NCBI GenBank assembly: GCA_034432095.1
Contig: DAOUCV010000088.1
Span: 1 to 54,133, forward strand
Length of the DNA stretch: 54,133 nucleotides
Direction: 5' to 3'
Source of the DNA: Dehalococcoidales bacterium
GTDB lineage: Bacteria > Chloroflexota > Dehalococcoidia > Dehalococcoidales > UBA2162
The first letter of the stretch is position 1, and each line of letters begins with the position of its first letter. The notes beneath the pieces were generated by a model, which was given only the letters and a program-made list of their open reading frames with translations, was not told the DNA's origin and ran no database searches. The position numbers were made by a program, and so were the translations under genes. Below are positions 543 to 50,538 of this stretch, in pieces.

Positions 543-2339
543 ATGAAGAAGATTACGTGGATGGTGGTCAGCTTTCTGATGGCTTTATCCCTAGTCATAG
601 CTTCCTGTGCTCCGAAAGAAGTAGAGGAGAAAAAAGCCGAGGAGAAAGCAACAATAGTAGTAAAAGCAGAAGAAAAAGCGGTGGCGGAAAAGGTGGAAAA
701 GGAAAAGCCGGGGCTCCTGCCTCCAGAAGTGCCCAAATATGGAGGGATACATACCTTCGTGGACTTAGAGCCGATGGGCTTTGACCCGGCCTATATTATT
801 TCTGTAGAGTGCAAACACGAGATGATCGGTTATGATGAACTTCTGGGTGAGGACTGGACGAAAGGTCCCGCAGGCACCGGTGAAATGGAAGGCCCATTCC
901 TTGGTCTCGTTTCGCTGTTGACTGGCGAGATTGCTGAAAGCTGGGAGCTACCCGATGATAATACCATTATCTACCATATCCGTAAAGGAATTCACTTCTG
1001 GGACAAGCCGCCGGCAAACGGCAGGGAACTTAACGCCAATGACGTGGTCTGGAATATACAGCGTCAGATGACCGGTCCCTACATGAAAATGAACGTTGCT
1101 CCCAAGGATTTTCCGACGTCTATAAAAGCGCTTGATAAGTGGACGGTGGAAATTAAAGTTCCTAGTTCACAAGGCTCGACCTTCATGATGATCAGTGAAC
1201 AAGTGCACTATTCCGCCCCTGAGGTAGTGGACAAGTATGGGGACCTCAAAGACTGGAGGAACGTTATCGGGACGGGGCCATGGATGCTGACGGATTATGT
1301 GCCCGCTACCAGCATGACCTTCAAGAAGAACCCCAACTACTGGAAGCATGACCCTCTTCATCCGGAGAACCAACTGCCCTATATGGATGGCCTTAAAGAG
1401 CTGTTCATCCTCGACGCGTCTACCAGGCTGGCCGGGTTCCGGACAGGCAAGATTGATAGACTAGGCGGTGGTCTCATTCCGATTTCCCTGGACGATGCGG
1501 AGCTCTTGCTGAGGGAAAACCCCGCCCTAAAATACAAAGAATTCCATACCGCAGGCACGTGCCTGTGGGGCAGGATTGACAAGCCGGAGCTACCTTTTAA
1601 AGACCTCAGGGTGCGCAAGGCACTCAACATGGCCATAAACAGACAGGAGATAGTAGATAAATACTATAAAGGCAAAGCTGATTTGTTCAGCGTTCCCTAT
1701 GCGAACGATGTGGGACACCGGGCTATGTTCACTCCGCTTGAGCAGATGCCGGCATCAGTCCAGGAGGTGTTCAGCTATAACCCGGAGAAGGCAAAACAAC
1801 TTCTCAAGGAGGCTGGCTATCCCAATGGCTTCAAGACCCAGATCCTCTGCTCAGCCGATGAGGCAGATTTCCTGTCTATGATCAGAGAGTACTTCCTCGC
1901 TATTGGCGTCGATATGACGCTTTCAGTGACAGAACTGGGAGCGAGGCGCAGCATGGCAAGGGCTAGAACGTACCCGGAGATGAATTATGGAGGTGTGGTG
2001 GAAAACGCTTTCCCCTTCAAGATGCATATGGTCCGCAGCGAGAGCTTTGACTGTTTCAGCTACTGGGAACATCCGTATACGAGGGCGCTCTACGAAGAGG
2101 CAATGAAATACGTTGGCAAGGACGACGCTGCGCTCTGCAAACTGCTGAAAGAGAGATATGCCCCGTTCGTTCTAGAGAACTGCATTGGCGTATGGCTGCC
2201 AGGACCATACACCTACACGCTGTGGTGGCCATGGCTACAGAACTTCTGGGGTGCAGTTACCCTGGGTTATGACAACCAGCAGGGTTACACTCACTATGCC
2301 TGGATGGACACGGCGCTGAAGAAATCTATGGGCTATTAA
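543..2339 (+). CDS. ABC transporter substrate-binding lipoprotein, family 5 (OppA/DppA-like), orphan
   Basis: Lipobox LVIASC, K/E-rich linker, LAESWE-like IAESWE, IGTGPWML, KNPNYW, VRKALNMAINR, YNPEKAKQLLKEAGYPNGF; RBS GGAGG upstream; no permease or ATPase adjacent. Confidence 0.93.
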   Translation: MKKITWMVVSFLMALSLVIASCAPKEVEEKKAEEKATIVVKAEEKAVAEKVEKEKPGLLPPEVPKYGGIHTFVDLEPMGFDPAYIISVECKHEMIGYDELLGEDWTKGPAGTGEMEGPFLGLVSLLTGEIAESWELPDDNTIIYHIRKGIHFWDKPPANGRELNANDVVWNIQRQMTGPYMKMNVAPKDFPTSIKALDKWTVEIKVPSSQGSTFMMISEQVHYSAPEVVDKYGDLKDWRNVIGTGPWMLTDYVPATSMTFKKNPNYWKHDPLHPENQLPYMDGLKELFILDASTRLAGFRTGKIDRLGGGLIPISLDDAELLLRENPALKYKEFHTAGTCLWGRIDKPELPFKDLRVRKALNMAINRQEIVDKYYKGKADLFSVPYANDVGHRAMFTPLEQMPASVQEVFSYNPEKAKQLLKEAGYPNGFKTQILCSADEADFLSMIREYFLAIGVDMTLSVTELGARRSMARARTYPEMNYGGVVENAFPFKMHMVRSESFDCFSYWEHPYTRALYEEAMKYVGKDDAALCKLLKERYAPFVLENCIGVWLPGPYTYTLWWPWLQNFWGAVTLGYDNQQGYTHYAWMDTALKKSMGY

Positions 2340-2366
2340 ACCTGGCATAATAGAAATAGTCAAATG

Positions 2367-2414
2367 GAAAGGAGTGGAGCGGGAGAATTTAAATTCTCCC
2401 GCTCCACTCCTTTC
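2367..2414 (+). terminator. Perfect 48-bp palindrome, probable intrinsic terminator of the SBP gene
   Basis: GAAAGGAGTGGAGCGGGAGAATTT followed directly by its exact reverse complement, then a T-rich tail. Confidence 0.8.
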
Positions 2415-2459
2415 TTTCTCGCTGCACAGTCGCTTGTTTCGTTACTTAAGAGGCAAAAG

Positions 2460-2489
2460 ATAGGGTCGAGCTTAACTCCTCGACCCTAT
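2460..2489 (-). terminator. Intrinsic terminator of aglB
   Basis: 11-bp stem ATAGGGTCGAG/CTCGACCCTAT, 8-nt loop, abutting the stop codon at 2490..2492; followed by CTTTT on the minus strand. Confidence 0.75.
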
Positions 2490-4847
2490 TCAATCGATGT
2501 ATTCAAAGATTTTTATTTCGGGGACTTGCCTGCCATCTGGCAGCGTTATATTATCCGAGCCATAAATCAGTTTGTAGTGTTCCAGCGCTTCTAGGGGCAC
2601 GGGGCTGAGCATCGGGTTAGGGCTGACTATTCTATAATTGGTTGAATTCTGACTGGAGAGATAGGCTTCCGCCTCTTCGTAAGTGCTTTTTTGTTCAGCG
2701 CTGGTGATTACCTTATAGATGTTACCGTCCTTGTCCACGTTTTGCTCATAGGAGATTACCCATACACTCTCAGGGGCCACCGCCTTACCGTCAAAGTTAT
2801 ACAGTCTGGCGATTAACGAACGGTAGTATTCAGGGTAGAAAAGTGGTCTTAATACCCAAGTTTTGTTTTCCTGTGGTATAAGATAGAAGTCAAAATATTC
2901 ACTTGGTTGCCTTCCTGCCCAGGTAGCAACCGCCCAGAATTTGCCAGAGGCTGTGATGGGGTTGGTGTAGGCTGTCTCGAAGTCAGTAATAATATATTTC
3001 GCGCCAAGTTTTTTGGCTATCTCGTCGGCTGACTTTTCATCCTGGGAAACAAAGTAGGAAGCTACCAGGGTCAAGGCTTTGGGCTCCTGACTGGGATTAG
3101 CAATTGGTATGCGGCGGGCAATGCGGGTAATCCAATAACCGTAGTCCCACCAAGCCAGGACACCGTAAGCGGACTCGGGGTATTTATAGTTTTCTCCAGG
3201 CGGTGGTTGTTCGGGGAGCCCATAATACAGGTCCGGATTGCCAAAGGGCTCAGGGGTATTTTCCTTCATCCAGGTGAGAGAGCGAACCCAGGCATCACTG
3301 GGAGTATACTGTGCCTGACGAGCAACCGTGGTCATTGGACCAATATTCCAGAAGAAAACGACAAAGAAAACAACAAGTACCGCTAACGCCATAACGGTGT
3401 AGTTGATAATGGTGGTCAAGCCACCCCTTTTCGGTCTGGCTTTTCCACCCCCCGCTTGTTTGGCCACTTTTACAGCTCTCGGAGTCAATTCCTTGAAACC
3501 AGCCAGCTCGAGAACTCTCCATGACAGGTAGCCGGTGAGCAGGGCTGCATTAACTGAATAATAGTAACCAAAGCGGCGTTGCCCAAGAGTCGCCGCCAGT
3601 ATTACCAGACTCCACACTAGCAAAAGGGTTTTTTCGGCAGCGCCTTGTTTGATAACGAGATAGATTAGTATGCCAAGGGAGATGAAACTGAGGAAAAAGC
3701 CGGTGGTGAAATTACCCCAGGCAACAGCCAAGGGATTGCCATAAATGGAACTGATCAGAGGCTGCATTTCGAGGGTGGTGAGCTGAGCGCCTGTCGGGTG
3801 GAAAATACCAAATGCGCTTAGTATTGAGCTTACCCGAGGAGCATCAACGAGGTAGAATAAGCCCAACCCAGCTCCTCCAAGCACGAGTAAAACTAGCGGG
3901 TAGTAGGCTGGTCTTATCTGCTTGCCGGTCATTAGTCGAGAGACCACATTCAGCACTAGCGGGATAAATAAGGCAATAACTAGATACAATATGTCTACCG
4001 AAGTTGCCAAAGATAGGATTATAGTAACAAGGAAGAGGGCAGCGCCAACCAGGCATAGATAGTCCGTAGATTTACCCCTCAAGTGGTCAATAATGAACTG
4101 GATGACGAAAAATACCGAGATGATAAATACAAAAAGCAGTGCCCCCATCCAGGTGAGGATGTAGATTCCCAGGAAGATACCCGCCAGCAGACTATAAATA
4201 AGTGGCTTTCTAACTATTGCCCAATTTAGGTGCCTCAGATGGCTGAAGGTTAACTGTTTCTGCCCCGCCGTCCTGATAGCCAGAATCAGGAACATGATGG
4301 TTGTGGTACTGAGCAACGTCTCAGCAACGTGGTGGTCTGTGGAGCCCAGTATTGAACGACCAACAAATTCACCGCCCAGGATGGACAAAAGACCAGCCGA
4401 GAGCACACCAATCCAGCGGCTGGACAGCTCTTTACCGATAAAGTAGACGGGAATAACGGTTAGAGCACATAGGACCACCGGGAAATAGACGCTAATTACA
4501 TCAACAGTGTGCTGGGTCGGTGAGCCCAAGCTAATCGCCCAGATAATGCCAGCAAGGAGATAATCAAAGAAGAGGCTGCCACCCACCGCTTTACCCGAAG
4601 GATAGATAAAGTATGGGTCAAATTTGAAAAGGTGGGGAAAGTTATGGGCGAGATTGTCAACGATGCGCATATGGTAATAAGCATCATTACAGGTAAATCT
4701 TATCCCCTCAGGAGTAAATACTCGGGCGTAGGGGTAAAAAATACGAACGAATAGGGCAACGGCAAAGAATAGAGCCACTAGTATGCCCGCAAAAAGTTCC
4801 GGGGAAAGTTTACCCTTGCCAGCTTGCTGGGCTTTTTTCGCGCTCAT
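2490..4847 (-). CDS. aglB: STT3-family oligosaccharyltransferase, euryarchaeal AglB type (785 aa)
   Basis: Multi-TM N-terminus with CNDAYYHMR, DHHVAE, TIXE-like TTLEMQP and QRRFGYY; soluble C-domain with YKYPESAYGVLAWWDYGYWI, ANPSQ and DFETA...GKFWA. Confidence 0.93.
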   Translation of the reverse strand: MSAKKAQQAGKGKLSPELFAGILVALFFAVALFVRIFYPYARVFTPEGIRFTCNDAYYHMRIVDNLAHNFPHLFKFDPYFIYPSGKAVGGSLFFDYLLAGIIWAISLGSPTQHTVDVISVYFPVVLCALTVIPVYFIGKELSSRWIGVLSAGLLSILGGEFVGRSILGSTDHHVAETLLSTTTIMFLILAIRTAGQKQLTFSHLRHLNWAIVRKPLIYSLLAGIFLGIYILTWMGALLFVFIISVFFVIQFIIDHLRGKSTDYLCLVGAALFLVTIILSLATSVDILYLVIALFIPLVLNVVSRLMTGKQIRPAYYPLVLLVLGGAGLGLFYLVDAPRVSSILSAFGIFHPTGAQLTTLEMQPLISSIYGNPLAVAWGNFTTGFFLSFISLGILIYLVIKQGAAEKTLLLVWSLVILAATLGQRRFGYYYSVNAALLTGYLSWRVLELAGFKELTPRAVKVAKQAGGGKARPKRGGLTTIINYTVMALAVLVVFFVVFFWNIGPMTTVARQAQYTPSDAWVRSLTWMKENTPEPFGNPDLYYGLPEQPPPGENYKYPESAYGVLAWWDYGYWITRIARRIPIANPSQEPKALTLVASYFVSQDEKSADEIAKKLGAKYIITDFETAYTNPITASGKFWAVATWAGRQPSEYFDFYLIPQENKTWVLRPLFYPEYYRSLIARLYNFDGKAVAPESVWVISYEQNVDKDGNIYKVITSAEQKSTYEEAEAYLSSQNSTNYRIVSPNPMLSPVPLEALEHYKLIYGSDNITLPDGRQVPEIKIFEYID

Positions 4848-45242: not shown

Positions 45243-46430
45243 TTGCTGTCTGATAATAGAGGATACTTTGGAGACTACGGCGGACGGTTTGTCCCGGAGA
45301 CACTGATGCCGGTCCTGGATGAGCTTTTGGCAGTCTATGAAGGAGCGAAGGCTGATGCCACTTTCTGGGCTGAATTTGACTCGCTCTCCCGTGACTACTC
45401 AGGAAGGCCAACACCGCTCTATCTGGCGGAAAAGCTAACCGAACACTGCGGCGGCGCTAAGATTTTCCTCAAGCGGGAGGACTTGGCTCATACCGGAGCC
45501 CATAAAATCAACAACGCTCTGGGGCAGGGCCTTCTTGCCCGCAGAATGGGCAAGCGGAGAATCATTGCTGAGACCGGAGCTGGGCAGCATGGGGTGGCTA
45601 CTGCTGCAGTGTGCGCCATGCTGGGGCTGGAGTGCATCATTTATATGGGTGAGGAAGATATAAAACGCCAGTCCCTGAATGTCTTCCGTATGAAGCTAAT
45701 GGGTGCCGAAGTAAGGCCAGTGTCCGGGGGCAGCCGAACCCTGAAGGATGCCATCAACGAGGCAATAAGAGACTGGGTGACTAATGCTTGGGATACATAC
45801 TACCTTCTTGGCTCAGTCGTGGGTCCCCACCCTTACCCACTCATGGTGCGGGATTTCCAGTCAATAATCGGTAGGGAGACGAGACAGCAAATACTGGATA
45901 AATTAGGGCGTTTGCCCAACTACATAATTGCCTGTGTCGGCGGGGGCAGTAACGCCATCGGCATCTTCTATCCTTTCTTAAAGGACAAGGATGTCAGGCT
46001 TATCGGGGTGGAGGCAGCGGGAAAGGGGCTGGATACTGGTAAGCATGCTGCCTCACTGGTGGCGGGAAGAGTGGGAATACTCCACGGTGCCAAATCCTAT
46101 ATCCTCCAGGATAATTATGGACAGATTAAGGAGACGCACAGCATCTCGGCAGGGCTGGACTATCCGGGGGTCGGTCCGGAGCACAGCTACCTCAAGGATA
46201 CCGGACGTGCCACCTATGTCGCCGTAAGCGATGATGAAGCGCTTGAGGGCTTTCAGCTACTCTGCCATACCGAGGGCATTACTCCAGCCCTCGAGCCGGC
46301 TCACGCTATCTTCTATGCCGCCCGGATGGCAGGTGGACTGGATAAGGAGCAAATCATCATCGTCAACCTCTCCGGACGTGGCGATAAGGACATAGATATT
46401 GTGGCTAAGGCACTGGGGGCGAAACCTTGA
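45243..46430 (+). CDS. trpB: Tryptophan synthase beta chain
   Basis: [44 protein letters not shown]; TTG start. Confidence 0.97.
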
Positions 46431-47215
46431 GTCGTATTGATACTGTCTTCGAATGGCCAGGGCACAAAGCTCTTATCCCCTATGTTACTGTAGGCTATCC
46501 CAGCATTGAAGCTACCCTCAAAGTGGTTCCTCTACTTGCCAGCAGTGGTTGCGATATGGTGGAGCTTGGTATACCCTTCTCCGACCCTCTGGCTGACGGT
46601 GTTACGATACAAAAGGCAAGTTTTCGCGCTTTGCAGAATGGCGTTACCCCCGAGACCTGTCTTGAGGTAGCCAGGGAATTAAGCCAGAAGGTCAATATAC
46701 CACTATTGTTTATGACCTATTTCAATCCGGTCTTTAGTTATGGCCTTGAAGAATTCTGTAACGCCTGCGCCAGCTCCGGCATTGACGGCTTGATCATCCC
46801 TGACCTGCCCCCGGAGGAAGGTATAGAGCTGGAAACCATTACCCGGAGGGAGGGGCTTGACCTCATTTACCTCCTTGCCCCAACCAGTAGTGAAGAGCGT
46901 ATCCGGCTGGTAGCGGAGAGGTCTCGGGGGTTCATATATCTGGTCTCAGTGACCGGTGTTACCGGAGCCAGAGACAGACTACCTGCAGGCCTGGATTCAT
47001 TTGTCGCCAGAGTGAAGAAGATAGCCACCCGGCCGCTCTGCGTTGGGTTCGGGATATCTACCCCGGAACAGGCAAGCTGGTTAGCCCGTATGGTTGAAGG
47101 AGTGATTGTGGGAAGCCGAGTAATTCAGTATCTGGAAGCTGATGAATCAATGGTAAAGGTAGCGAAGTTTGCTAGAGAATTAAGGCTTGCCCTTGACCGG
47201 CCAGGCAGAAGTTAG
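46427..47215 (+). CDS. trpA: Tryptophan synthase alpha chain
   Basis: [32 protein letters not shown]; TTG start overlapping the trpB stop. Confidence 0.96.
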
Positions 47216-47226
47216 ATTTACCAGAC

Positions 47227-47255
47227 TTGACGCTGAACAGCCAATTGACTAGAAT
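47227..47255 (+). promoter_or_regulatory. Sigma70-type promoter for the 40-aa ORF
   Basis: TTGACG (47227..47232), 17 nt, TAGAAT (47250..47255). Confidence 0.7.
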
Positions 47256-47302
47256 AATCCCAAGCGGGTAAACAATTCAAGGGATGTTATTGGAGGCTAG
47301 CA

Positions 47303-47425
47303 ATGGGGAGAAAACAGGAGAAGGCGCAACAAAGAAAGCAGTACAAGGAAACTTTCAGGGGCGTTAAACACGGTCACGGCGGTCGCCCTATTAGGAAAAA
47401 GCAAGAGGCTGCCTTGGGTAAATAG
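47303..47425 (+). CDS. Small basic protein, 40 aa (below the ORF-track cutoff)
   Basis: MGRKQEKAQQRKQYKETFRGVKHGHGGRPIRKKQEAALGK; GGAGG at 47292..47296, 6 nt before the ATG; own promoter. Confidence 0.65.
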   Translation: MGRKQEKAQQRKQYKETFRGVKHGHGGRPIRKKQEAALGK

Positions 47426-47742: not shown

Positions 47743-48093
47743 TCACCAAGATTGGGCAGTTTGCCTGACCATCAGTTGCCATTGAGACCAGTCAAGCCTG
47801 GCTAACTCTGATACCAGACTGCGTAGCGATTCATCCTCAGTTAACGAATAGAGGGGAACATCGTTATTAGTTGACACTCTTACCACCCCTTTGTCAATAA
47901 GTTGGCTTAGGGCTCTCTTGGTGTGTGGTTTTTTATTGTGCGAGTTCAGGGCTTGGGCAACCACCGGCTCGCTGAATCGGGTATAGGGGTACCTACCAAA
48001 AAACCGGAGGAGTTGCAGGCAATAGAAATCATCTATGTATTGCCTGACGAAATGACAAAGCTTTTCGGCAAGAGTAGTTTGGGCTAGGGTCAT
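47743..48093 (-). CDS. Hypothetical protein, probable winged-helix fold (116 aa)
   Basis: Start moved to ATG 48093 (RBS GGAGAG); ALSQLIDKGVV...LYSLT resembles a recognition helix plus wing. Confidence 0.6.
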   Translation of the reverse strand: MTLAQTTLAEKLCHFVRQYIDDFYCLQLLRFFGRYPYTRFSEPVVAQALNSHNKKPHTKRALSQLIDKGVVRVSTNNDVPLYSLTEDESLRSLVSELARLDWSQWQLMVRQTAQSW

Positions 48094-48126
48094 GTTTTTC
48101 TCTCCAACCTGTATTTTCAGGCTGAG

Positions 48127-48165
48127 CAAGGAGCCGTAGAGAAGGTCGATTCCTACGGCTCCTTG
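48127..48165. terminator. Hairpin downstream of ftsZ
   Basis: 13-bp perfect stem CAAGGAGCCGTAG/CTACGGCTCCTTG, 13-nt loop; no U-tract on the ftsZ strand. Confidence 0.5.
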
Positions 48166-48197: not shown

Positions 48198-49289
48198 CTA
48201 GCGAATGGGGTAGGCTCGTTGCTTTGGAACAGCCTTGCCGTATCTCATAAAGGAAGGGATTTCAAGCTCCTCGTCGCTCTTCATTCCCTTGAGAAGTTTT
48301 GTGATTTCTCTCTCCCAGGCAGTTCCGGCGCGTCCCTCCTTGGTAGCAAAGCCGGTAGCAATTAGTGTTAATCGGACGTCGTTACCCATACTCGGGTCAA
48401 GAACAACACCGAAGATAACGTTTGCCTCCGGGTCAATAGCCTGCTTGATGACCTCAGCGGCCTCGCTCACCTCAAACAGGGTAAGGTTGCTGCCGCCGGC
48501 AACGTTAAATAACACTCCCTTCGCCCCTTCCATGGAGACATCAAGTAACGGGCTGGCTAAGGCTTGTTTAGCGGCATCCTTTGCTCGGTTCTGTCCTGAA
48601 CCACGGCCGATAGACATCCATGCTGGACCGGCATCTTTCATTATTGTCCGGACATCGGCAAAGTCAAGATTGATCAGACCAGGGACAGTAACCACCTCAG
48701 CGATCGCCTGTACTCCGTGAGTAAGGATTTCGTCAGCAAGCTTGAAGGCGCTATCGACGCTTGTCTTCTGGTCACAGAGTTCAAGCAAGCGGTCATTGGG
48801 GATAATAATCAGGGTGTCTACTTTGTTGACTAGGTCTACGATTCCCTTTTCAGCAACTTCACAGCGGTGGGTTCCTTCAAAGGTGAAGGGCTTGGTGACC
48901 ACGGCAATGGTGAGGGCACCGCTTTGTTTGGCCATTTGGGCTACCAGCGGTATTGAGCCAGTGCCAGTACCACCACCCATACCGGCGGTGATGAAGGTCA
49001 TATCCGCTCCGGCGACTGCCTGCTTAATCTCCTCACGGCTTTCCTCAGCGGCCTTCTGACCCAGTGTATGGTCACCACCGGCACCGAGACCCCGGGTAAC
49101 TCGTTCCCCAAGCTGGATACGTACCGAAGCTTCGGTAATTGCCAGATGCTGGGCATCGGTATTCATGGCGATGAATTCCACACCACGGATACCCTCCCGT
49201 ACCATTCGGGTAATTGCGTTACAGCCTCCTCCGCCCAGGCCGATAACTCTAATCCTGGCCCCACTGGGAACATAACTTGTTTTTGCCAT
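48198..49289 (-). CDS. ftsZ: Cell division protein FtsZ
   Basis: GLGGGGCNA, NTDAQ, GMGGGTGTG, NDRL, INLDFADV, C-terminal EIPSFMR. Confidence 0.97.
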   Translation of the reverse strand: MAKTSYVPSGARIRVIGLGGGGCNAITRMVREGIRGVEFIAMNTDAQHLAITEASVRIQLGERVTRGLGAGGDHTLGQKAAEESREEIKQAVAGADMTFITAGMGGGTGTGSIPLVAQMAKQSGALTIAVVTKPFTFEGTHRCEVAEKGIVDLVNKVDTLIIIPNDRLLELCDQKTSVDSAFKLADEILTHGVQAIAEVVTVPGLINLDFADVRTIMKDAGPAWMSIGRGSGQNRAKDAAKQALASPLLDVSMEGAKGVLFNVAGGSNLTLFEVSEAAEVIKQAIDPEANVIFGVVLDPSMGNDVRLTLIATGFATKEGRAGTAWEREITKLLKGMKSDEELEIPSFMRYGKAVPKQRAYPIR

Positions 49290-49329: not shown

Positions 49330-50538
49330 TTAGCGAAAGACCCGGAAAATCTGGGAAATAAAACGGCGGAAGCCGCTGTGAGGTCGCCAGCTTTGTACGT
49401 CAGCCTTCTTCCCTTTCCAGAGGAGAAGACCGACGCTAGTAGCGTAGGCTGGGTCCCACAAAGTATCGGCAATGCCGTACAGGTTCATCGGGACGCCGAC
49501 CCTAACCGGGAGCCGGGTTAACTTCTGCCCCAGTTCGGCAATCCCTGGAAGATTAGCCGAACCACCGGTCAGCACCAGTCCTGAGGGGATGAGCTTGGCA
49601 TATTCGCCCCGCGGCAGTTCCATCATAATAAGTCGAATAATTTCCTCGACGCGGAGGCGAACAATTTCCGATAGGTCACGGTAGGAGACGGTGTGCCCGT
49701 CCTCTGTTACGGTTCTATCGGGCTCGTCTTTGTCCCCTTCCTGGGCGGGCATCACATTACCATACTTCTTTTTCATTGCCTCAGCTAAATCAAAGGAGAT
49801 ATCCAAGCCAACAGAAATATCGCGGGTGATCTGATACCCGGCTACCGGCAGGACAGCGGTGTGGTAGATACTGCTGTCCTTAAAAATAGCAATATCGGTG
49901 GTGCCACCGCCGATATCAGCGAGCAGCACGCCATCCTGTTTCTCTTCTTGAGAGAGGATAGCTTCAGCGCTGGCTAGCGGTTCTAAGACAAGGTCATCAA
50001 TGTCAATGCCAATGCTACGTATACACTTGACCAGGTTCTGGACAGAAGTTACTGCCGCCGTAATGATATGTGTCTCTACGTCCAGACGAAAGCCGTGCAT
50101 GCCTACCGGGTTTTTTACTCCCTCCTGACCATCAACAGCGTAGGTACGTGGGATGATATGGAGCAACTCGTGGTCGCTGGGGATTTTGACACTACGGGCG
50201 ACTTCCAGAACGCGCTTCAGGTCTTTAGGATGCACCGTTCGGTCATTACGGGTAATGGCGATAACTCCTCGGTTATTTACCGAACTGATATGCCTGCCGG
50301 TAACGCCAACATAGGCTGATTCTAATCGGTAGCCAGCAATCTGCTCCGCTTTCCTTACTGACTCATGGATTGACTGCTTGGCCTCGTTGAAATTGACTAC
50401 CAGGCCTTTTTGCAGTCCCTGTGAGGGCGCTATGCCAACTCCAGTGATTCGAGGCAAGCCATCATCCTCAGTATCAGCCATAATGGTGCACACCTTGGTA
50501 GTGCCCACATCTATAGCCGCAATTTTAATTCTTCTCAT
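49330..50538 (-). CDS. ftsA: Cell division protein FtsA
   Basis: AIDVGTTKV, VGVTGRHI, NPVGMHG, LEPLASA, DIGGGTTD, VLTGGSA, YATSVGL. Confidence 0.95.
   Translation of the reverse strand: MRRIKIAAIDVGTTKVCTIMADTEDDGLPRITGVGIAPSQGLQKGLVVNFNEAKQSIHESVRKAEQIAGYRLESAYVGVTGRHISSVNNRGVIAITRNDRTVHPKDLKRVLEVARSVKIPSDHELLHIIPRTYAVDGQEGVKNPVGMHGFRLDVETHIITAAVTSVQNLVKCIRSIGIDIDDLVLEPLASAEAILSQEEKQDGVLLADIGGGTTDIAIFKDSSIYHTAVLPVAGYQITRDISVGLDISFDLAEAMKKKYGNVMPAQEGDKDEPDRTVTEDGHTVSYRDLSEIVRLRVEEIIRLIMMELPRGEYAKLIPSGLVLTGGSANLPGIAELGQKLTRLPVRVGVPMNLYGIADTLWDPAYATSVGLLLWKGKKADVQSWRPHSGFRRFISQIFRVFR

Follow-up and report, generated by a model that had tools for sequence, protein, structure and literature searches.

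A family of very basic 40-residue microproteins from uncultured Dehalococcoidia, often encoded next to ftsA-ftsZ

Hydrophilic bacterial proteins of less than 45 amino acid residues that contain more than 30% Lys plus Arg are predominantly ribosomal proteins or nucleic-acid binders. The SRA (bS22) and RMF proteins of E. coli are dispensable, taxonomically narrow, basic proteins of less than 60 aa that are encoded by monocistronic genes with their own promoters; RMF has a helix-linker-helix organization. The bL37 protein, a 24-aa component of the 50S subunit in Mycobacterium and Cutibacterium (PDB entries 5o60, chain 3, and 8crx, chain V), is short and basic, starts with M-[AG]-K, and carries the invariant C-terminal motif A-N-H-G-K-R-P-N. 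The bTHX protein (Pfam PF17070), found in Thermus and, as PSRP4, in plastids, is very small, very basic, and lineage-restricted and is encoded by a free-standing gene. It is buried in h41/h42 of the 16S rRNA in the head of the 30S subunit, and the pI of bTHXc is about 11.1 (PMC5737520). Such engagement of the whole protein surface with rRNA is of the kind that would explain the strong constraint on the 40-aa protein described here, which shares the small size and basic character of all these proteins, as well as the other general traits listed above for SRA/bS22 and RMF, the type of N terminus seen in bL37, and the lineage restriction and free-standing gene of bTHX.

The gene for this protein was noticed in a contig of 54,133 nucleotides from a Dehalococcoidales bacterium (referred to below as the window), where it occupies the gap between the end of the trpF-trpB-trpA genes and a convergent run that consists of a 60-aa open reading frame (ORF) with two predicted transmembrane (TM) segments, a gene designated here N3, ftsZ, and ftsA (Table 1). 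It thus adjoins the ftsAZ cluster but lies on the opposite strand, with the two-TM ORF in between. The spacer that separates it from the stop codon of trpA is 87 nt long and contains a promoter-like site. The encoded protein is Cys-free and hydrophilic, with 8 Lys and 5 Arg residues and 3 Glu residues; its calculated pI of 11.1 matches that of bTHXc by coincidence. The original prediction, made from the DNA sequence alone, had placed all these elements correctly: every coordinate is exact, as are the length of 40 residues and the counts of 13 Lys/Arg and 3 Glu residues. Its description of the protein as unannotated is only partly apt, as homologues are listed as "hypothetical protein" in the NCBI and JGI records and the exact sequence is present in the ESM Atlas.

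Table 1. Features of the window in the vicinity of the gene for the 40-aa protein
Feature	Position	Strand	Remarks
trpA, end of trpF-trpB-trpA	46427..47215	+	Same strand, upstream of the 40-aa gene; stop at 47215
-35-like hexamer TTGACG	47227..47232	+	In the spacer after trpA
-10-like hexamer TAGAAT	47250..47255	+	17-nt spacer; 10 of 12 matches to consensus
Shine-Dalgarno GGAGG	47292..47296	+	6 nt before ATG
CDS, 40-aa basic protein (stop included)	47303..47425	+	ATG at 47303, 40 codons, TAG at 47423-47425; conserved frame, length, and start position; pN 0.146 vs pS 0.85 (saturated), 12 genus-level orthologues
Two-TM ORF, 60 aa	47477..47659	-	Convergent with the 40-aa gene
N3, winged-helix protein trailing ftsZ	47743..48129	-	Roughly 116 to 128 aa; 116 aa from ATG at 48093
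ftsZ	48198..49289	-	Neighbour family N2, 43 loci
ftsA	49330..50538	-	Neighbour family N1, 46 loci

A six-frame search of 41 genomes, including that of the window itself, found full-length, stop-free matches with 57 to 83% identity in 13 of the 40 related genomes. A pattern scan limited to one genome per species added 75 loci, all from metagenome-assembled genomes (MAGs), and 77 clusters of homologues were found in a collection of 5.8 billion proteins. The protein is exactly 40 aa long in 74 of 85 copies, and the first codon is always at the same position (ATG in 72 cases, GTG in 6, and TTG in 4), whereas the flanking DNA on either side of the gene could not be aligned between genera. One orthologue (L109:3001-3030) is cut off after 9 codons and probably represents a pseudogene or an assembly error. 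The variability at codon positions 1, 2, and 3 (0.13, 0.085, and 0.41, respectively) follows the pattern of a protein-coding sequence, and the median dN/dS ratio among the 17 pairs with finite dS is 0.076. In the same set of 26 genomes, the median pairwise identity is 77.5% for the 40-aa protein, compared to 71.9% for FtsZ and 41.3% for N3. Conservation and purifying selection, whose lack was to count against the original prediction, are both decisively present: the frame is conserved and pN is far below pS. By the measure of its sequence evolution, the segment is a genuine protein-coding gene, and almost its full length is under purifying selection as strong as that on FtsZ.

The small size of the ORF and the presence of a promoter match that, within the window, is no better than expected by chance could be taken to indicate a chance ORF, a conserved small RNA, or a regulatory element rather than a protein-coding gene. 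The low pN relative to pS and the codon-position pattern rule out both a random ORF and an RNA element. Further, the frame, length, start, and Shine-Dalgarno sequence are kept in more than 80 loci with unconserved flanks, and an Rfam search of the locus matched no RNA family, which makes this explanation hardly credible. In a comparison of codon usage with that of 10 genes for ribosomal and translation proteins from this genome, the score of the ORF (0.017) falls within their leave-one-out range (-0.057 to 0.047), a level that is also reached by 10.5% of the background windows.

The original prediction also proposed that the gene has its own promoter and ribosome-binding site, and comparison of the orthologues bears this out. 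A Shine-Dalgarno core is found at positions -16 to -5 in 67 of the 82 loci (82%), compared to 7.9% of random 12-mers, so that the gene evidently has its own ribosome-binding site; it is probably well translated. As for the promoter, a match like that in the window is expected by chance (1 site was found in 2 kb, with 2.0 expected), and the case for it rests on the orthologous loci, where promoter-like sites, counted at 9 to 11 of 12 consensus matches, occur within 140 nt upstream of the gene in 36 of 83 instances (43%) and the -10 box mostly lies 20 to 50 nt before the start codon. The frequency of such sites in random 140-nt windows from the same loci is 7.5%; this control consists mostly of coding DNA, which somewhat overstates the enrichment. 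The gene very probably has its own sigma-70-type promoter. No terminator-like site was found on the plus strand between trpA and the 40-aa ORF, so that read-through from the trp operon is possible and may add to the transcription from its own promoter. Terminator-like hairpins are found within 120 nt downstream of the gene in 17 of the 85 loci.

Database searches did not place this protein in any described family. Searches of Pfam and NCBIfam with 28 family members returned no match at E ≤ 10, and those against the PHROGs and PADLOC models returned none at E ≤ 1. The PDB chains, including all small proteins of the solved bacterial ribosomes, gave no match at E ≤ 10 with either the single sequence or the family profile as a query. 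A profile search of 1.84 billion representative proteins with no length limit retrieved 33 proteins, all of 94 aa or less and with the same motif pattern; there were no fused forms among them, and the longer members look like products of mis-called starts or read-through. The nearest clusters in the ESM Atlas are unnamed hypothetical proteins with scores of 0.78 or less, which is below the meaningful level. A Foldseek comparison of the AlphaFold2 (AF2) model with the PDB had a best E value of 8, as expected for 40 residues at a pLDDT of 71, and a literature search found nothing on this family. A small protein of a phage or of a defense system was also considered and rejected, given the lack of PHROGs and PADLOC matches and its absence from the phage and plasmid collections searched. 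Judging from these comparisons, the protein represents a new orphan family of very basic microproteins.

The named records for this family all come from MAGs labelled Dehalococcoidales, Dehalococcoidia, or Chloroflexota; the single exception, labelled "delta proteobacterium," probably reflects a binning label. The gene was found in 14 of the 41 related genomes (counting that of the window), in 10 of the 24 other genomes from the same GTDB family, and in 7 of the 15 relatives that are at least 90% complete. An even sample of the class yielded the gene in 7 of 301 genomes; it was not detected in any of 10 sampled genomes (mostly single-contig and ∼99% complete) from one family of the same order or in any of 400 other genomes taken from across the phylum. 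The family is confined to a part of the uncultured Dehalococcoidia and is patchily distributed there. No relatives were found in IMG/VR, the INPHARED phages, or the PLSDB plasmids. The divergence of the 40-aa protein tracks that of FtsZ (rho = 0.62) and N3 (rho = 0.81), in pairs that are not independent, which argues for its vertical inheritance; the gene is chromosomal and dispensable.

The genomes of four species carry two copies of the gene, and one 3-Mb genome (G322) carries three, the canonical form and two members of a diverged subtype (L035 and L036). The diverged proteins start with M-P-I-S-N-R, contain a loop of the sequence K-Y-G-H-G-G-R, and have a short extension at the C terminus; one of their genes (L035) is located just upstream of that for trigger factor.

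The AF2 model built with the family alignment consists of an α-helix (residues 3 to 19), a Gly/His-rich loop (residues 20 to 31), and a second helix (residues 32 to 37), with a mean pLDDT of 71 that drops to ∼60 in the second half of the protein. Moderate values of this kind are typically seen for peptides that acquire their fold on a partner. In a set of 59 distinct sequences of 40 aa, no or almost no variation was found at Gly2, Arg3, Lys4, Lys7, Gln10, Arg11, Tyr14, Phe18, Lys19, Val21, and Lys22 in the first half and His23, Gly24, His25, Gly26, Arg28, Lys32, Lys33, Glu35, Ala37, Leu38, and Gly39 in the second half. The variable positions of the predicted N-terminal helix (5, 8, 9, 12, 13, 17, and 20) fall on one side of it, with a variability moment of 0.505 that was reached by only 33 of 10,000 shuffles, and the opposite side forms a continuous conserved stripe of Lys/Arg and Tyr/Phe/Val residues. 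As its conservation exceeds that of FtsZ, nearly the whole surface of the protein seems to be engaged with a partner that hardly changes.

These features can be combined in the following proposal. As its small size and polar character would prevent it from folding alone, the 40-aa protein would fold onto a conserved polyanionic partner, contacting it with the invariant face of the N-terminal helix (Lys4, Lys7, Gln10/Arg11, Tyr14, Phe18, and Val21/Lys22) and with the invariant K-H-G-H-G-G/T-R loop followed by R/K-K-K. The most likely partner would be the RNA of the ribosome. The protein could then be a dispensable, lineage-specific ribosome-associated protein, comparable to bTHX, bS22, bL37, and the small hibernation factors, rather than a core component of a subunit. 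The original prediction likewise took the protein for an RNA- or ribosome-binding one, which is plausible in view of its composition and the pattern of its conservation. This role, that of a nucleic-acid binder which folds on its partner and is most likely ribosome-associated, is put forward tentatively and is somewhat doubtful, even though it ranks first among the functions considered here. The reasons for this ranking are that proteins in its class of size and charge are mostly ribosomal, that the basic and aromatic stripe with a Gly/His/Arg loop resembles peptides buried in rRNA, and that conservation at the level of FtsZ would be explained only by a very conserved partner.

The original prediction had gone further and compared the 40-aa protein to small proteins of the 30S subunit, such as bTHX, and suggested comparison with the bTHX and bS22 profiles. 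Kinship with bTHX is rejected by every comparison made, and that with bS22 found no support. The Pfam Thx model (cut-off, 29.7 bits) matched neither the ORF nor any of the 28 family members at E ≤ 10, and a six-frame search with this model in the 41 related genomes gave nothing over the cut-off and no weak match (E ≤ 1) at the 40-aa ORF. Alignment of the family profile with Thx from Thermus thermophilus by hhalign had a probability of 0.4% and comprised a single aligned column. The Thx sequence used as a query was identical to the PDB chains (the mycobacterial bL37 query was likewise checked against PDB); alone, it does recover the plastid and mitochondrial homologues in the PDB, whereas the profile of the 40-aa family recovers no PDB chain. 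For the RMF and SRA/bS22 families, too, there was no Pfam or NCBIfam match among the 28 members and no PDB chain, in each case at E ≤ 10. In addition to the lack of any detectable sequence relationship, the 40-aa protein differs from bTHX by its length (the core of bTHX has 26 to 27 residues), by the predicted long N-terminal helix, and by its patchy distribution at the genus level.

A short resemblance was noticed to bL37, whose conserved H-G-K-R-P motif is matched in the alignment by the H-G-G-R-P/S/A loop of the 40-aa family. In the hhalign comparison with the mycobacterial protein, V-K-H-G-H-G-G-R-P is paired with S-K-A-N-H-G-K-R-P, a stretch of 9 columns with 56% identity; the pairwise E values of 0.016 to 0.019 and probabilities of 2.4 to 2.9% are not significant, and the E values are biased because this comparison was picked after the motif had been noticed. 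The family position 29, which is aligned with the bL37 proline, is occupied by Ser in 23, Ala in 19, and Pro in 17 of the 59 sequences. Membership in the bL37 family was rejected, given the length of 40 aa, a local match of only 9 columns, and the variability of this position; bL37 is actinobacterial and 16 residues shorter. This likeness is a lead and not evidence of homology. A broader possibility is that the 40-aa protein is a strongly diverged member of a known small ribosomal family, either bTHX or the actinobacterial bL37. The loop alignment with bL37 is consistent with such an origin, as are the M-[AG]-[KR] start and the highly basic character shared by the two proteins. However, the hhalign probabilities for both candidates are very low, the post hoc E value is biased, Pro29 is not conserved, the lengths differ (40 aa versus 24 to 27 aa), and no Pfam, NCBIfam, or PDB profile match was found, so that such an origin is very unlikely.

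The genome of the window already encodes bS21, bL32, bL33, bL34, and bL36. The 40-aa ORF is therefore not a replacement for any of these five proteins.

The ribosome-associated role finds a weak hint in some of the gene neighborhoods, which could reflect a link to RNA or translation. The gene is located directly after rplU-rpmA in locus L055 and, in the diverged form, before the trigger factor gene in L035; a cold-shock gene is found directly downstream of it in 5 loci, and a convergent rlmN gene is found in 11. The number of such translation-related neighbors is about what chance would give. Several observations count against a ribosomal function. Neither sequence nor profile comparisons revealed similarity to a ribosomal protein family; the gene is patchily distributed even within its own GTDB family and has two or three paralogues in some genomes; its dominant synteny is with ftsA-ftsZ and not with ribosomal operons; and the five small ribosomal proteins listed above are already encoded in the genome. 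Known lineage-specific ribosomal proteins tend to span whole phyla, unlike this patchy family. Such a pattern speaks in favor of a factor with an accessory or conditional function rather than a core protein of a subunit; taken with the ftsAZ linkage, it is at least as suggestive of an accessory role.

The neighbors of the gene in the 85 loci were clustered and annotated with Pfam. The dominant gene order, all on one strand, is ftsA, ftsZ, N3, sometimes N7 (a gene of unknown function coding for 105 to 121 aa), and the 40-aa gene; ftsA was found in 46 loci, ftsZ in 43, and N3 in 35. This linkage of the 40-aa gene to ftsA-ftsZ and the winged-helix gene in about half of the loci is new relative to the original prediction. 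In 38 of the 39 loci of the ftsAZ type, the spacer to the upstream gene is 14 to 138 nt long (the outlier has 274 nt), with a median of 86 nt and 13 spacers of less than 50 nt. The genes downstream of the 40-aa gene are variable (MFS, KamA-like, and ATP-grasp genes, convergent rlmN, a cold-shock gene, an epimerase gene, and others) while the upstream junction is kept. The trpBA genes adjoin the paralogous copies of the 40-aa gene in L097 and L110.

This arrangement makes a role in cell division or the cytoskeleton the main rival to the ribosome-associated one. The 40-aa protein would then be a dispensable modulator that binds FtsZ, N3, or DNA at the division site. In about 46 of the 85 loci, its gene is directly downstream of, and co-oriented with, ftsA-ftsZ(-N3); the short upstream spacers are compatible with co-transcription; and the constancy of the upstream junction is set off by the wide variation of the downstream neighbors. 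The linkage persists where synonymous sites are saturated and is shared by at least two GTDB families (f1 and f17), and accessory regulators of division typically show a patchy distribution. There is also a single case, L037, in which a CetZ-like tubulin homologue (PF00091 plus PF21011; positions 1652 to 2818, plus strand) takes the place of ftsZ upstream of the 40-aa gene. In this locus, the 40-aa gene (positions 3001 to 3120) follows the CetZ-like gene after 180 nt and encodes a protein that is 85% identical to that of the window, one of the closest relatives among those from the genome scan.

On the other hand, the 40-aa gene is found elsewhere in 39 of the 85 loci, and in the window it is on the strand opposite to ftsAZ; a search for flanking repeats that could explain this inversion revealed nothing convincing. 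The gene often has its own promoter and shows no ftsZ linkage in other orders of the class (f29, f30, and f86). Some genomes have ftsZ-N3 but lack the 40-aa gene; in five genomes that had given no match, the region that follows ftsZ-N3 was searched for diverged hidden copies, and none was found. Adjacency within one order may also be an inherited gene order with no functional meaning, and small ribosomal genes, too, have non-translational neighbors, such as in the rpsU-dnaG-rpoD cluster. A complex prediction for FtsZ, N3, and the 40-aa protein as a partner returned a score of 0.00 ("no answer"), which speaks neither for nor against binding. The 40-aa FtsZ modulator MciZ of Bacillus subtilis is similar in size and in its accessory distribution; however, MciZ acts in sporulation and is not encoded next to ftsZ, whereas the 40-aa family is ftsZ-linked in about half of its loci. 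Sequence and profile searches of the PDB found no similarity to MciZ or other small FtsZ modulators. On this evidence, the division-linked role is considered rather unlikely.

The N3 protein has no Pfam match. Its AF2 model (pLDDT 87.5) was matched by Foldseek to winged-helix proteins of the ArsR/MarR type, with the segregation protein TubR among the matches. A second N3 paralogue is encoded in the genome of the window directly after two tandem genes for CetZ-like proteins (G000, contig C4:14071-17053, minus strand). The N3 winged-helix family may thus be a companion of the genes for FtsZ and other members of the tubulin family, in an association that suggests a TubZ/TubR-like pairing. The 60-aa two-TM ORF, which forms the tail of the ftsAZ run in the window, has no Pfam match either and has a single homologue among the 85 loci, encoded between ftsZ and N3 in L058.

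The composition and the partner-folded architecture of the 40-aa protein could also be those of a general DNA-binding protein, associated with the nucleoid or with transcription and having no specific link to the ribosome or to division. Its gene adjoins genes for winged-helix proteins, N3 in 35 loci and a divergently transcribed MarR-type gene (N17) in 5, and a DksA/TraR gene is found downstream of it in L102. Conservation over nearly the full length suggests a specific, invariant binding site and not a sequence-independent coating of DNA, and no homology to known nucleoid proteins was found. This function is regarded as improbable.

The last of the functions considered is that of a precursor or substrate peptide (RiPP-like or a modified carrier) for a set of enzymes encoded near some copies of the gene. 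A radical SAM gene of the KamA (lysine-2,3-aminomutase)-like type is located within 3 kb downstream of the 40-aa gene, on the same strand, in 12 of the 85 loci, usually together with one or two D-Ala-D-Ala-ligase-like ATP-grasp genes and an MFS transporter gene. Loci with this cluster include L012, L013, L018, L019, L037, L039, L064, and L068; the cluster may be responsible for making a β-lysine-derived compound. In the genome of the window, it is unlinked to the 40-aa gene and resides on another contig (G000, C96:19209-22424), and most of the loci have no such enzymes nearby. Where the enzymes are present, an MFS gene usually lies between them and the ORF, and the conservation extends over the whole peptide with no leader/core pattern. 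There is, accordingly, only a very slim chance that the protein serves as their substrate.

Small proteins are systematically under-annotated, and the protein described here, although it equals FtsZ in conservation, is unnamed, belongs to no described family, and has no carrier in culture. At present, it is a well-supported conserved hypothetical microprotein. There is a real, if not quite even, possibility that it is an unrecognized lineage-specific structural partner of a core machine, either a new ribosomal or hibernation protein or a microprotein of a minimal division module that consists of ftsA, ftsZ, and the winged-helix gene and is accompanied in the same genome by a paralogous module of the CetZ-like/winged-helix type. 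Either outcome would be useful and of specialist interest. If ribosomal, the protein would add a lineage-specific component to the ribosome, as bS22 and bL37 did for Actinobacteria. Cultured members of the Dehalococcoidia, such as Dehalococcoides, are wall-less. If the protein is a part of the ftsAZ module, it would provide a handle on cell division in the Dehalococcoidia, in which the division cluster is reduced to ftsA-ftsZ and a few small genes.
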